Sequence record: MN655998.1
Strand: one strand, 5' to 3'
From: Escherichia phage E26
DNA: 64,000 nt
Below the pieces are notes generated by a model. The model ran no database searches. It saw nothing but the letters and a program-made list of their open reading frames with translations, and was not told the origin of the DNA. Both the position numbers and the translations under genes were made by a program. Position 1 is the first letter of the stretch. Every line of letters starts with the position of its first letter. Below are positions 2,783-53,750 of the stretch, piece after piece.

Positions 2783-2839
2783 CCTTTTGTTTTCGATGGG
2801 GACATTATGATATATCCCCGATCCAGTGTCAACAGATTT

Positions 2840-3139: not shown

Positions 3140-3173
3140 TATTAAATCCTCATAAAAGAAAAGGGAGACTCCC

Positions 3174-3201
3174 ATTATAGAGAATCTCCCTTGTATGTCA
3201 A
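3174..3201 (-). promoter_or_regulatory. early promoter cassette (TTGACA-N16-TATAAT)
   Basis: rc tgtcaa at 3196-3201, rc attata at 3174-3179; palindrome gggagactccc downstream. Confidence 0.5.
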
Positions 3202-10162: not shown

Positions 10163-10192
10163 AAAAAAGCCTCCAATCTTTCGACGGGAGGC
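10163..10192 (-). promoter_or_regulatory. hairpin sequestering the GGAGG Shine-Dalgarno of the ADP-ribosyltransferase gene
   Basis: GCCTCC-N12-GGAGGC stem plus U-run; ATG at 10159. Confidence 0.4.
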
Positions 10193-19225: not shown

Positions 19226-19254
19226 ATTATAGGGGAATCGACCTAGTTTGTCAA
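19226..19254 (-). promoter_or_regulatory. early promoter of gene 43 (TTGACA-N17-TATAAT)
   Basis: rc tgtcaa 19249-19254; rc attata 19226-19231; inverted repeat ATAGGGG/CCCCTAT. Confidence 0.55.
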
Positions 19255-19275
19255 TACCCCTATCCCATCAGTATC

Positions 19276-26016: not shown

Positions 26017-26071
26017 AATAACCTCCCATCAATTTTTTAGAGAGTATAACGGGGATTTCTCCCCGCGTCAA

Positions 26072-33208: not shown

Positions 33209-33237
33209 AGTATAGGGGATCGCGAGATCCCCGTCAA
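33209..33237 (-). promoter_or_regulatory. early promoter cassette (TTGACG-N17-TATACT)
   Basis: Palindrome GGGGATCGCGAGATCCCC in spacer. Confidence 0.45.
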
Positions 33238-34395: not shown

Positions 34396-34420
34396 AAAAA
34401 GCCGACCCTTTCGGATCGGC
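34396..34420 (-). terminator. rho-independent terminator after nrdD
   Basis: GCCGATCCGAAAGGGTCGGC + UUUUU. Confidence 0.55.
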
Positions 34421-34426
34421 TGAAAA

Positions 34427-36828: not shown

Positions 36829-36858
36829 AATATAATCCTCTCGTTGTTAAGTGGGAGT

Positions 36859-36886
36859 ATTATAGCATACTCCCTTCGCATGTCAA
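36859..36886 (-). promoter_or_regulatory. early promoter cassette (TTGACA-N16-TATAAT)
   Basis: Stem GGGAGTAT/ATACTCCC spans -10. Confidence 0.5.
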
Positions 36887-38061: not shown

Positions 38062-38092
38062 AATATAATCCTCTAGTTGTTTAAATGGGAGT

Positions 38093-38121
38093 ATCTTACT
38101 ACTCCCGTTTCATCATGTCAA
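38093..38121 (-). promoter_or_regulatory. early promoter cassette (TTGACA-N17-TAAGAT)
   Basis: Stem GGGAGTA/TACTCCC. Confidence 0.45.
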
Positions 38122-38972: not shown

Positions 38973-39003
38973 TGTTGATTCTCCTTCTTGATTAGATGGG
39001 AGT

Positions 39004-39032
39004 ATTTTACTACTCCCATTTCATGCTGTCAA
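39004..39032 (-). promoter_or_regulatory. early promoter cassette (TTGACA-N17-TAAAAT)
   Basis: Stem GGGAGTA/TACTCCC. Confidence 0.45.
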
Positions 39033-42194: not shown

Positions 42195-42228
42195 AATATA
42201 TTCCTCACATCGTTCATTTGATGCGGCT

Positions 42229-42257
42229 ATTATAGGATAACCGCATTTTCATGTCAA
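42229..42257 (-). promoter_or_regulatory. early promoter cassette (TTGACA-N17-TATAAT)
   Basis: Inverted repeat GCGG/CCGC in spacer. Confidence 0.45.
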
Positions 42258-42904: not shown

Positions 42905-42933
42905 AGTATAGGGGATACGCGATCCCCTGTCAA
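42905..42933 (-). promoter_or_regulatory. early promoter cassette (TTGACA-N17-TATACT)
   Basis: Palindrome GGGGATACGCGATCCCC in spacer; leader GTTTCGTTTTGA. Confidence 0.5.
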
Positions 42934-44665: not shown

Positions 44666-44911
44666 TCACTCTTCTGTAATTACTTCATATTCAATTTTCC
44701 ATACATCAATCGCCCAGCTTAAAAGCTCATACGATTTACAGAAAGATGACCAAATATACTGTTTTCCGTGCATCGTTGTTATGTGTGTACGCTCGCCAAC
44801 CTCAACGAAAGACATATTTGACTTTGTGATAACTATAGGAATGCGACCGAAAGCTGGCGGTATTACTGATTCGTTGGTCTTCATTCTATGTTCCTCACTC
44901 TTCTGTTTCAT
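44666..44911 (-). CDS. paralog family C member
   Basis: ITKSNMSFVEVGERTHITTM...YELLSWA. Confidence 0.5.
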   Translation of the reverse strand: MKQKSEEHRMKTNESVIPPAFGRIPIVITKSNMSFVEVGERTHITTMHGKQYIWSSFCKSYELLSWAIDVWKIEYEVITEE

Positions 44912-45460: not shown

Positions 45461-45487
45461 ACAAAAAGGCTATCCCGAAGGATAGCC
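45461..45487 (-). terminator. rho-independent terminator after gp38-like gene
   Basis: GGCTATCC-ttcg-GGATAGCC + U-run. Confidence 0.5.
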
Positions 45488-46550: not shown

Positions 46551-46593
46551 TTTTTTGATTCTCCTAGAAAGTGTATCTCGTTTCGATGGATGT

Positions 46594-46622
46594 ATTATGC
46601 ATTAACACCGGATCGCTGTCAA
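46594..46622 (-). promoter_or_regulatory. early promoter cassette (TTGACA-N17-CATAAT)
   Basis: Conserved leader CATCGAAACGAGA...AGGAGAATCAAA. Confidence 0.5.
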
Positions 46623-46640
46623 CACTTTCTAAGAAAAATT

Positions 46641-47875: not shown

Positions 47876-47900
47876 AAAAAAGCCACCCTTTCGGATGGCT
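47876..47900 (-). terminator. rho-independent terminator
   Basis: AGCCATCCGAAAGGGTGGCT + UUUUU. Confidence 0.5.
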
Positions 47901-48133
47901 TTTGATTATATTTTATTCACGTCCATTTGTATAGTAGTGTTTGAATCGACCTTTGCTAAACTAGTTAAACATAGTAACCAATTCACCATCCCTTTCCAAT
48001 GATAACCCTTCCTCGTCTTAGACGGGTCTTCCGATTCGGCAGTAATTGAACACGCGAAAGTATGAGGAAACCAAATAGTTGTGTTAATGCTAGTATTCTT
48101 TTACTTATGGTATGCATCCCACGGTGACTAACA

Positions 48134-51599: not shown

Positions 51600-51684
51600 T
51601 AATTTCTCCTGTTTGGCTTAACTTTCTGATTCCATAATATAGCCCTATCACCAGAAAGTCAAGCATTAATTTAACCAATTTCCA

Positions 51685-52149: not shown

Positions 52150-52447
52150 ACGGGATTTCTTTAAACTTGAATTTCTCTATAGTTAATTCTTTAGTAGCAA
52201 GATGAATACCATAAGCATCATGTGTCACGATATGCCATTTTCTATAGTCCAAATGTGAACAACCGTCTGGATCTAGATTAATAAGAGTTTCTCGCTCACT
52301 AGGATTATTTTTCCACAATTTTGTAATCGGATCGCACATAATTCGACCTAGCGTACCATGAATAATCTCACAACGGTAAAGTTTTCCAGCAGTGAGATAG
52401 GCGCACCCGTCATAGTCGGTATAAACAAACACTTCTTTAACACTCAT
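52112..52447 (-). CDS. paralog family D member (start after cassette)
   Basis: GKLYRCEI...CSHLDYRKW. Confidence 0.45.
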   Translation of the reverse strand: MSVKEVFVYTDYDGCAYLTAGKLYRCEIIHGTLGRIMCDPITKLWKNNPSERETLINLDPDGCSHLDYRKWHIVTHDAYGIHLATKELTIEKFKFKEIPFVYWLRNLFKKG

Positions 52448-52478
52448 TTTAATACTCCTTTGTTGTTTCGATGGGGGT

Positions 52479-52507
52479 ATATTACTACCCCCGTTTTGTT
52501 GTGTCAA
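52479..52507 (-). promoter_or_regulatory. early promoter cassette (TTGACA-N17-TAATAT)
   Basis: Stem GGGGGTA/TACCCCC. Confidence 0.45.
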
Positions 52508-52768
52508 CTACTTTTTCAAGATTTTTTTGAGTGCATTCCAAAGACCTTTATTCTCAGGTTGTTTTGGTTCTTCGATCAGTGTCCACGGACGGTCGTCTAA
52601 GTATGCACAGCTTTTCAGAGAAATAAAAAGTTTATATCCTTTATCATCTTTGATGTAACCGTAGGTAGACATTCTTTCATCTGGCGTAAACTTATACAGT
52701 TTATTTGGGGTGATGTAAGATCTACTACTATAAGGTGTCATTACATATTTCATGGTACTAACTCCCAT
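52508..52768 (-). CDS. paralog family D member
   Basis: TPNKLYKFTPDER...CAYLDDRPW. Confidence 0.45.
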   Translation of the reverse strand: MGVSTMKYVMTPYSSRSYITPNKLYKFTPDERMSTYGYIKDDKGYKLFISLKSCAYLDDRPWTLIEEPKQPENKGLWNALKKILKK

Positions 52769-53664: not shown

Positions 53665-53710
53665 AATTAAACCCTCAGTTGATTAAGAGATTGCATCATA
53701 TCATCATAAA

Positions 53711-53737
53711 ACGAAAAAGCCAACCCTTTTTGGATTG
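53711..53737 (-). terminator. rho-independent terminator after grcA
   Basis: Imperfect stem AGCCAATCC/GGGTTGGCT + U-run. Confidence 0.4.
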
Positions 53738-53750
53738 GCTTGATGAAAAA

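Follow-up and report, generated by a model that had tools for sequence, protein, structure and literature searches.

Background

The early regions of phages RB49 and phi1 carry an element known as the promoter-early stem-loop (PeSL), described by Arbiol et al. in 2010 (PMC2839356) and extended by Comeau et al. in 2014 (PMC4122927). A PeSL consists of a near-consensus sigma70 promoter, an AT-rich upstream region with an upstream stop codon, a stable and often poly-G/poly-C stem-loop and, on the 3' side, a Shine-Dalgarno (SD) sequence and an ATG (PMC2839356, PMC4122927). The stem-loop falls into five positional subclasses (PMC2839356) and mostly lies between the -35 and -10 hexamers or overlaps the -10 (PMC2839356, PMC4122927). 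Its discoverers proposed that the stem-loop terminates or attenuates transcription from upstream and that PeSLs mediate modular shuffling by recombination (PMC2839356, PMC4122927), and speculated that the GGGG...CCCC motif is possibly bound by a protein (PMC2839356). In lacZ assays, PeSL206/205 was tested for promoter activity and the stem-loop of PeSL211/210 for termination; the latter lowered downstream lacZ expression, bringing it to a level comparable with that seen for rrnB T1 (PMC2839356).

Two other kinds of phage hairpin associated with promoters serve as points of comparison. The hairpins of phage N4, with stems of 5-7 bp, 3-nt loops and conserved sequence, are extruded as single-stranded structures and read by a dedicated virion RNA polymerase. 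In T4, promoter-spanning hairpins that sequester the ribosome-binding site are found at soc and I-TevI. At T4 gene e, such a hairpin sequesters the ribosome-binding site in read-through transcripts (reviewed in PMC3014915).

Here we examine a hairpin embedded in an early promoter of Escherichia phage E26, together with its paralogous copies in the window, by which we mean the whole 64,000-nt stretch analysed (from record MN655998.1). An initial annotation of this stretch had described compensatory base changes that keep a hairpin across the spacer and -10 region of several promoters, and had read the hairpin as more likely a signal at the DNA level than a structure in mRNA.

Results and discussion

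The focal site is a PeSL in a Krischvirus early region

An 8-kb piece around the focal site matched 57 Krischvirus phage genomes (RB49, Phi1, GEC-3S, Brandy and others) over its full length at 97% identity, and this likeness of ~97% assigns the window to Krischvirus, as an RB49/Phi1/JSE-like T4-type coliphage. The window's early genes are on the minus strand, and GC skew, start codons and the annotation of relatives put the genes around the focal site on that strand too. The focal region is a series of small, mostly unnamed early ORFs, organized as tandem, co-directional cassettes; GEC-3S, JK32 and JSE have arrays of small hypothetical ORFs, and regB lies just downstream of the focal cassette in the window's relatives. 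A comparison of the whole window with Rfam matched no family.

All eight inverted repeats listed in the initial annotation are present at their coordinates, and every one of them is embedded in an early promoter, of the sigma70 type, that belongs to a small-gene cassette. These minus-strand promoters have the form TTGACA-N17-(T/C)A..AT, followed by a C-rich stretch at -3 to -1, ATCGAAAC, GGAG and ATG. Early promoters of RB49 are likewise reported to favour C from -3 to -1, with a consensus in agreement with 5'-end mapping (PMC1524935).

At the focal site (Table 1), TTGACA-N17-TAATAT forms a near-consensus sigma70 early promoter, with caacaaaac between the -35 hexamer and the 5' arm. Immediately before TTGACA, aaaaaaatcttgaaaaagTAG provides an AT-rich upstream region that includes the stop codon of the upstream gene; the stable stem-loop GGGGGTA/TACCCCC lies within the promoter, and a Shine-Dalgarno sequence and an ATG follow. 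Judged by its sequence, the element is a PeSL of the RB49/phi1 kind, with which it shares the genus (at 97% identity), the promoter, the AT-rich upstream region, the placement of G(n)-loop-C(n), the SD and ATG, and a location between small ORFans in hyperplastic regions. The finding is in this sense already known, because the element has every sequence-level feature of a PeSL and the genome belongs to the same genus. The PeSL papers contain no covariation framing, no terminator exclusivity and no wobble-pair strand bias, and their termination assay concerns a stem-loop of our class B (defined below) only.

Table 1. Promoter-embedded stem-loops, focal promoter elements and upstream terminators in the window (stems are written 5' arm, loop, 3' arm on the strand given; promoters are named by coordinate).
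Position	Strand	Feature	Initially listed	Remarks
52473..52492	-	Focal class-A7 stem-loop GGGGGTA gtaata TACCCCC	yes	5' arm 52492-52486, loop 52485-52480, 3' arm 52479-52473
52502..52507	-	Focal early promoter, -35 hexamer TTGACA		GEC-3S orthologue annotated as promoter
52479..52484	-	Focal -10 hexamer TAATAT		Bases 1-5 in the loop; base 6 opens the 3' arm
52472	-	Predicted +1, A of the conserved ATCGAAAC		From spacing; hairpin ends at -1
52508..52510	-	TAG stop codon of upstream ORF, abutting the focal -35		Sequence and GEC-3S annotation
52445..52458	-	GGAG Shine-Dalgarno (52455-52458) and ATG (52445-52447) of the small ORF preceding regB		PeSL feature
60322..60341	-	A7 stem-loop GGGGGTA gtaaga TACCCCC	yes	Promoter 60356
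38087..38106	-	A7 stem-loop GGGAGTA gtaaga TACTCCC	yes	Promoter 38121
38996..39019	-	A7 stem-loop (AT)GGGAGTA gtaaaa TACTCCC(AT)	yes, as 38998-39017	Promoter 39032
57819..57840	-	A8 stem-loop GGGTGTAT agcata ATACACCC	yes	Promoter 57853
36853..36874	-	A8 stem-loop GGGAGTAT gctata ATACTCCC	yes	Promoter 36886
42221..42246	-	A8 stem-loop (AT)GCGGTTAT cctata ATAGCCGC(AT)	no	Promoter 42257; one sense-strand U·G pair
2798..2819	-	A8 stem-loop GGGGATAT atcata ATGTCCCC	no	Promoter 2832; one sense-strand U·G pair
42911..42927	-	Class-B stem-loop GGGGAT cgcgt ATCCCC	yes	Followed by -10 TATACT
33215..33232	-	Class-B stem-loop GGGGATC tcgc GATCCCC	yes	Spacer of promoter 33237
58521..58537	-	Class-B stem-loop GGGGAG gataa CTCCCC	no	Promoter 58543
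26050..26065	-	Class-B stem-loop CGGGGA gaaa TCCCCG	no	Promoter 26071
3161..3192	-	13-bp stem with two U·G pairs, loop formed by the -10 TATAAT, then TTCTTTTAT	no	Other geometry; canonical terminator overlapping promoter 3201
19229..19263	-	Stem ATAGGGG/CCCCTAT around -35 and spacer	no	Other geometry; promoter 19254
60824..60844	-	Canonical hairpin + T-run terminator upstream of promoter 60807		Promoter has no embedded hairpin; terminators annotated in GEC-3S
58845-58866, 47878-47903, 45468-45487, 34400-34421		Further sites with the same upstream-terminator arrangement		

The stem-loops occupy two main positions

The initial annotation had placed the stems at the same position in every copy. 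This holds for six of the eight listed sites, which overlap the -10 and whose 3' arm ends 6 nt past it, at -1 (class A). It does not hold for the two GGGGAT sites (class B); these are not positionally equivalent to class A, because they take up the entire 17-nt spacer adjoining the -35 and stop short of the -10. Class A itself comes in two registers offset by 2 nt, A8 (8+6+8) and A7 (7+6+7), the 5' arm of A7 lying 2 nt closer to the -10 than that of A8. Loops measure 6 nt in class A and 3-5 nt in class B, and further copies of A8 and B, as well as other geometries, lie beyond the initial list (Table 1). We located the assayed PeSL211/210 stem-loop in the Phi1 genome, where it is class B (TTGACA GGGGATCggtGATCCCC TTATAAT).

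Outside Krischvirus, hairpins with the class-A geometry but unrelated stems are present in Nanhuvirus (Cronobacter phage LPCS28) and in relatives of fENko-Kae01 among the ~350-kb jumbo enterobacterial phages. In pattern scans of IMG/VR, a 23-base pattern led to useful relatives, and patterns with 15-17 specified bases gave mostly unrelated contigs among the matches listed.

Pairing is maintained while the arms diverge

Promoters were predicted blind to hairpins, requiring a -35, a -10 and an SD plus ATG, across one genome-equivalent made up of the window and the remaining 100 kb of phage Brandy. Fully complementary arms were found at 6 of 60 promoters in the A8 register and at 9 of 60 in the A7 register, compared with 0.2% (A8) and 1.5% (A7) of arm pairings made across promoters (binomial P ~1e-8 and 3e-7), and sliding the 3' arm by 1-3 nt left only 0-1 of the 60 promoters fully complementary. 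Among ten distinct A8 hairpins from Krischvirus and the related jumbo phages, a set that is 100% paired by construction because it was chosen for pairing, five of the eight pairs have changed on both sides (13 cells), although such statistics overstate the number of changes because paralogous copies are not independent events. The A8 covariation score was reached by 0 of 500 shuffles, and slid structures scored far lower.

Complementarity and covariation thus lie far above chance, as the proposal of compensatory changes had implied. The accompanying view, that structure and not sequence is constrained, is likewise upheld: the arms differ between copies yet remain complementary, and each arm pairs better with its own partner than across promoters or in slid registers. 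These differing but complementary arms point to a constraint on pairing, not on sequence. A comparison of three orthologous genomes showed identical stems beside spacer bases that differ.

The RNA forms of the class-A hairpins fold at -12 to -15 kcal/mol (z -3.0 to -4.3), the focal stem-loop having a minimum free energy of -15.3 kcal/mol (z -4.3), and those of two class-B sites at -10.7 and -13.0 kcal/mol (z -1.9 and -3.3). The best-hairpin score within ~115 nt did not separate promoters from random segments of that size, and the register- and class-specific tests above were used instead.

Two candidate identities were set aside. A palindromic operator was rejected on the covarying arms (GGGTGTAT, GGGAGTAT, GCGGTTAT, GGGGATAT, GGGGCTAT and AGGGATAG), because half-site conservation, as such an operator would show, is not seen when the arms co-vary. 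Hairpin promoters of the N4 type resemble the present sites in having a short DNA inverted repeat just upstream of an early-gene start site; they differ in that the sites described here have sigma70 consensus hexamers, 6-nt loops in class A and a hairpin that is dispensable in paralogous promoters. The related-phage annotations that we examined include no virion-RNAP gene, and the N4 type was rejected on loop size, on the sigma70 hexamers and on the T4-type genome.

Embedded hairpins and upstream terminators are mutually exclusive

We scored as a canonical upstream terminator any hairpin plus T-run within 80 nt upstream of the -35. Among 61 predicted promoters of the genome-equivalent, 31 had an embedded hairpin only, 11 an upstream hairpin and T-run only, one had both and 18 had neither. 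Embedded hairpins and canonical upstream terminators are thus mutually exclusive (Fisher p=0.0008), in a test that is conservative because many of the 18 promoters with neither are probably false predictions inside genes; the terminator in the single case with both is weak.

The same relation is seen among promoters that share one backbone, CATAATACAC(C/A)C-ATCGAAAC ('ACACCC' or 'ACACAC' after CATAAT), which occur with and without a 5' arm. Those without a credible upstream terminator keep the arm (57853 in the window; 38028 and 42388 in the Brandy segment L130, 42388 being the weak case with both), and those with an upstream terminator have a decayed arm (58812; 38802 and 39305 in L130). Because paralogous promoters on this shared backbone exist with a decayed 5' arm, the promoter itself does not require the hairpin.

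In cassettes with an embedded hairpin, the end of the upstream stop codon falls anywhere from 21 nt before the -35 to 4 nt inside it, and the median intergenic length (GEC-3S annotation included) is 66 nt, versus 106 nt with a separate terminator. With cassettes arranged in tandem and in one direction, and with the upstream stop at or near the -35, RNA initiated upstream includes the hairpin, either at its 3' end or as an intergenic stretch; the hairpin is the first structure past the upstream stop codon. At the focal site a separate terminator has no room, because the upstream TAG abuts the -35. Together, these observations indicate that the stem-loop stands in for a terminator and is not tuning the promoter.

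Mispairs within the stems were counted with a detector that makes no distinction between G·T and A·C. The ratio of internal G·T to A·C pairs was 12:1 in upstream terminators and 11:3 in embedded stems, the latter excess not being significant against the whole sense-strand background of 132:79. In the A8 stems, all four wobble pairs are G·U on the sense strand. This strand bias points towards sense-strand RNA and, for the embedded stems, is suggestive.

The initial annotation had reasoned that a hairpin preceding the start site is more likely a DNA-level signal than an mRNA structure. That step is not supported, as the hairpin lies in read-through RNA; the terminator exclusivity, the predominance of sense-strand G·U among the mispairs, the dispensable 5' arm and the class-B lacZ data all speak for a terminator-like role in RNA. 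Control of the promoter at the DNA level would mean that the early promoter is turned off or on by a supercoil-driven cruciform or by a dimeric protein that binds the palindrome overlapping the -10; we regard this as very unlikely. The palindrome does overlap the -10 and the discriminator, it lies entirely upstream of +1, and both strands can fold (DNA hairpins of -6.3 to -8.8 kcal/mol). However, the same -35, -10 and leader are found in promoters without the 5' arm, the stem-loop shifts against the hexamers from class to class (A7, A8, B and further geometries here, five published subclasses), and an anticorrelation with upstream terminators is not expected of a promoter switch. Each G·T pair would become an A·C mismatch in the other arm of a cruciform, and the covariation of the arms speaks against a sequence-specific operator. 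For cruciform extrusion, stems of 7-8 bp closed by a 6-nt loop are also short.

Transcription of the opposite strand offers another setting for the hairpins, as antisense (plus-strand) or bidirectional terminators that would shield the early cassettes from converging or late antisense transcripts. A terminator scanner flagged 52470-52495 and 60320-60343 as terminator-like on the plus strand, where G·U pairs lengthen the stems, the tails are TTGTTGTGTC and TTCATGTTGT, and the RNA folds at -16.8 kcal/mol. These two A7 copies are the only ones followed by a U-tract on the opposite strand, and copies of A8 and class B have no such tail. The orthologues weaken the idea further, since they do not share the U-rich antisense tail: in JK32 and JSE the A-rich spacer behind it has changed (…ccatgatcGGGGG), but the stem is kept. 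The wobble pairs of the core stems favour the sense strand as well, and we give a shielding role of this kind only a very slim chance.

It is also conceivable, if highly improbable in our judgement, that the hairpins are a non-adaptive by-product, the 3' arm being fixed by the promoter and the 5' arm being kept perfect by templated repair of quasi-palindromes, or by gene conversion among paralogous cassettes, and not by selection. T4-type replication is rich in recombination, T4 is known to undergo mutation by quasi-palindrome correction, and the 3' arm is conserved here even in copies without a hairpin. Such an origin would leave the mutual exclusivity with upstream terminators unexplained, though, and class-B hairpins use no promoter-constrained bases. 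Nor would it account for hairpins of this geometry, but with unrelated stems, in Nanhuvirus and the ~350-kb jumbo phages.

Class-A hairpins differ from standard terminators

Like intrinsic terminators, the embedded stem-loops are G+C-rich hairpins shortly downstream of a stop codon, they tolerate G·U pairs on the sense strand, and their distribution here is interchangeable with that of hairpin plus U-tract terminators. They differ in that the hairpin overlaps a functional promoter, and in what follows it: the only tail of class B is the U/A-rich -10, and class A has no sense-strand U-tract. Directly 3' of the class-A hairpins, which are followed by AUCGAAAC, ACAAACAA or AUUUAAAC, no such tract was present on the sense strand (tails atcgaaac, acaaacaa, atttaaac and acttaaca). 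Promoter-overlapping designs with a true U-tract do exist; in the window this is the case at 3161-3192, where the tract is on the sense strand, and in the jumbo phages a -35 or -10 lies inside a stem that is followed by a T-run.

Under the standard model of intrinsic termination, class-A hairpins are expected to terminate poorly because they have no U-tract. We infer that they nonetheless act like class B; as their tails are not U-rich, class A may attenuate only weakly, or act mainly as a 3'-end barrier after processing. For such processing, regB and GGAG Shine-Dalgarno sites are available.

A role in RNA stability may therefore be weighed, in which the polymerase does not stop at the hairpin; after read-through and processing, for example by RegB at the GGAG ~15-20 nt downstream or by RNase E, the hairpin would block 3'-to-5' exonucleases and so set the stability of the upstream message. 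The absence of a U-tract in class A fits such a stabiliser, as do the location of the hairpin 15-35 nt past the upstream stop codon with GGAG sites after it, and the presence of regB just downstream of the focal cassette in relatives. The strand asymmetry and the exclusivity with terminators would be the same in either case. We nevertheless find a pure stabiliser unlikely, since a class-B stem-loop, assayed on a plasmid with no phage factors present, cut downstream reporter expression (PMC2839356), a result that attenuation fits better.

Alternatively, class A could be a distinct device conserved in Krischvirus, Nanhuvirus and the ~350-kb jumbo phages, for example a U-tract-independent stop or hand-off by which the end of a transcript is linked to initiation at the overlapping promoter, or a structure-specific DNA site that promotes the excision of cassettes as mini-circles; we consider this a rather remote prospect.

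Comparison with the T4 hairpins that hide a ribosome-binding site is instructive in a different respect. In both cases only RNA initiated farther upstream can form the structure, since the local promoter begins transcription within or beyond it. The 3' arm in T4 lies in the leader and hides the Shine-Dalgarno sequence, whereas the class-A hairpin ends at -1 and leaves the SD untouched. As a separate observation, a structure of this T4 type may exist at 46559-46637.

Recombination between PeSLs

Arbiol et al. sequenced recombinant PeSL-PeSL mini-circles, one of which had its crossover in a loop (PMC2839356). The published crossovers are scattered over the ~100-bp element, running from SD to -10, from ATG to -10 and from the stem-loop to the AT-rich region (PMC2839356). 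In light of these reports, the G(n)...C(n) inverted repeat might be a DNA site, perhaps bound or cut by a protein, that targets cassette exchange, shuffling and mini-circle formation. The mini-circles, the crossover in a loop and the authors' speculation about a protein binding GGGG...CCCC are in keeping with such a signal, as are chimeric PeSLs with a common 3' half but a different 5' arm.

In our data, PeSL paralogues share 60-100 bp at 82-88% identity, and the scattered crossovers fit plain homologous recombination over ~60-100 bp of such identity. Between 44 and 64 kb, none of the indel junctions relative to JK32, JSE and GEC-3S, a small sample, fell in a class-A stem; the junctions seen there comprised insertions of endonuclease genes, one replacement that borders on the terminator of PeSL 47864, and a deletion of 213 bp between repeats in SD regions. 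The stem sequences also vary (GCGGTTAT, GAGGTCAT, AGGGATAG), which argues against a sequence-specific protein. We therefore doubt that the inverted repeat serves as a dedicated recombination signal, and put its probability low.

Conclusions

We suggest, as a reading somewhat better than even, that the hairpins are PeSL stem-loops that terminate or attenuate transcription in read-through RNA and, for compactness, share bases with the promoter. Each small early gene has its own strong sigma70-type promoter, and with the upstream stop codon at the -35, the end-of-transcript structure would be written into the promoter itself. The 3' arm reuses bases that the promoter requires (the A/T ending the -10 and the C-rich stretch at -6 to -1), and the otherwise unconstrained spacer supplies the complementary G-rich 5' arm. 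The same bases could then function as a promoter in duplex DNA and as a 7-8 bp G+C-rich hairpin in read-through RNA. This hairpin would attenuate or terminate read-through, or at least define and protect the 3' end of the upstream message; with read-through blocked or the 3' end set, each cassette would be insulated.

As the element is published, no new kind of system is described here; a reading of the bare sequence independently recovered the PeSL stem-loop and its covariation. What the present analysis adds is a formal test of covariation, the exclusivity with terminators, the relation to stop codons and intergenic length, a suggestive wobble bias, and the occurrence of the class-A geometry in Nanhuvirus and jumbo phages. 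Class A, which lies over the -10 and has no U-tract, is the commonest class here, and the published termination assay covers class B. Should class A prove to terminate or insulate efficiently, phage engineering would gain a very compact promoter/terminator module, and the transcriptional isolation of shuffled orphan genes in T4-type phages would be easier to explain.

Sequence variation and strand asymmetry of the focal hairpin

We compared the focal A7 stem-loop (52473-52492, minus strand; a 7+6+7 hairpin over the -10) with its orthologue in phage GEC-3S, in which the 5' arm reads GGGGGG, one G more, while the 3' arm retains five Cs; the extra G makes the promoter spacer 18 nt instead of 17. 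The G-run thus varies in length within the stem of these orthologues. On the plus strand, antisense to the early genes, both the focal hairpin and its sister A7 copy (52470-52495 and 60320-60343) are lengthened by G·U pairs and followed by T-rich tails, and a simple scanner therefore scores them as terminators in that direction. When the JK32 and JSE orthologues were compared, this plus-strand T-rich tail was not conserved.

Other overlapping structures and indel junctions in the window

Several further structures in the window lie on or near promoters (see table). Judged from its bases, the element whose loop is the -10 is a canonical-looking terminator that completely overlaps a consensus promoter. 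The stem around promoter 51662 has the -35 within its 5' arm and leader sequence as its 3' arm. The GCCTCC...GGAGGC hairpin is located between the -10 of promoter-like site 10221 and the start codon, and with its TTTTTT forms a terminator-like structure within the would-be leader. The putative transcript-specific stem would, as predicted from sequence, bury a GGAG Shine-Dalgarno in read-through RNA, and its 5' arm is absent from RNA initiated at the promoter's own +1, an arrangement similar to the transcript-specific translation control of the T4 gene e type.

Positions of additional structures and of indel junctions
Position	Strand	Feature
3161-3192	minus	13-bp stem, two sense-strand U·G pairs, loop = -10 TATAAT, then TTCTTTTAT
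about 10169-10192	minus	Hairpin GCCTCC...GGAGGC, then TTTTTT
46559-46637	minus	Putative transcript-specific stem structure
51616-51664	minus	13-bp stem, one G·U pair, around entire promoter 51662
44677-44891		Indel junction vs JK32/JSE
47912-48127		Indel junction vs JK32/JSE
53677-53962		Indel junction vs JK32/JSE
54866-54890		Indel junction vs JK32/JSE
56863-57260		Indel junction vs JK32/JSE; 396-bp stretch, replaced by 197 bp in JSE

Among the junctions with JK32 and JSE we found loss of a 213-bp small ORF between direct repeats, one in each of two Shine-Dalgarno regions; inserted HNH/homing endonuclease genes; and a 2.1-kb ORF replacement adjoining the terminator of the promoter-early stem-loop cassette PeSL 47864.

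Promoter hairpins in other phages

The class-A geometry, with the loop over the -10 and the 3' arm ending at -1, is also present, with different stems (GGGGCTAT/ATAGTCCC, AGGGATAG/CTATCCCT, GGGGATAT/ATATCCCC and GAGGTCAT/ATGACCTC), outside Krischvirus in jumbo enterobacterial phages of ~350 kb and in Nanhuvirus (Klebsiella phage fENko-Kae01, 1-50 kb; IMG/VR L018 and L128; Cronobacter phage LPCS28). Many promoters of the jumbo phages have the -35 within a stem. In unrelated phage contigs of about 36% GC (IMG/VR L156, L161 and L169), consensus promoters occur at 1.4-2 per kb, and many of them have the form GGGG-TTGACA-N-CCCC, whose hairpin encloses the -35. Based on these low-GC contigs, we suggest that promoter-overlapping hairpins may reach beyond the T4-type phages, and may be widespread outside them.
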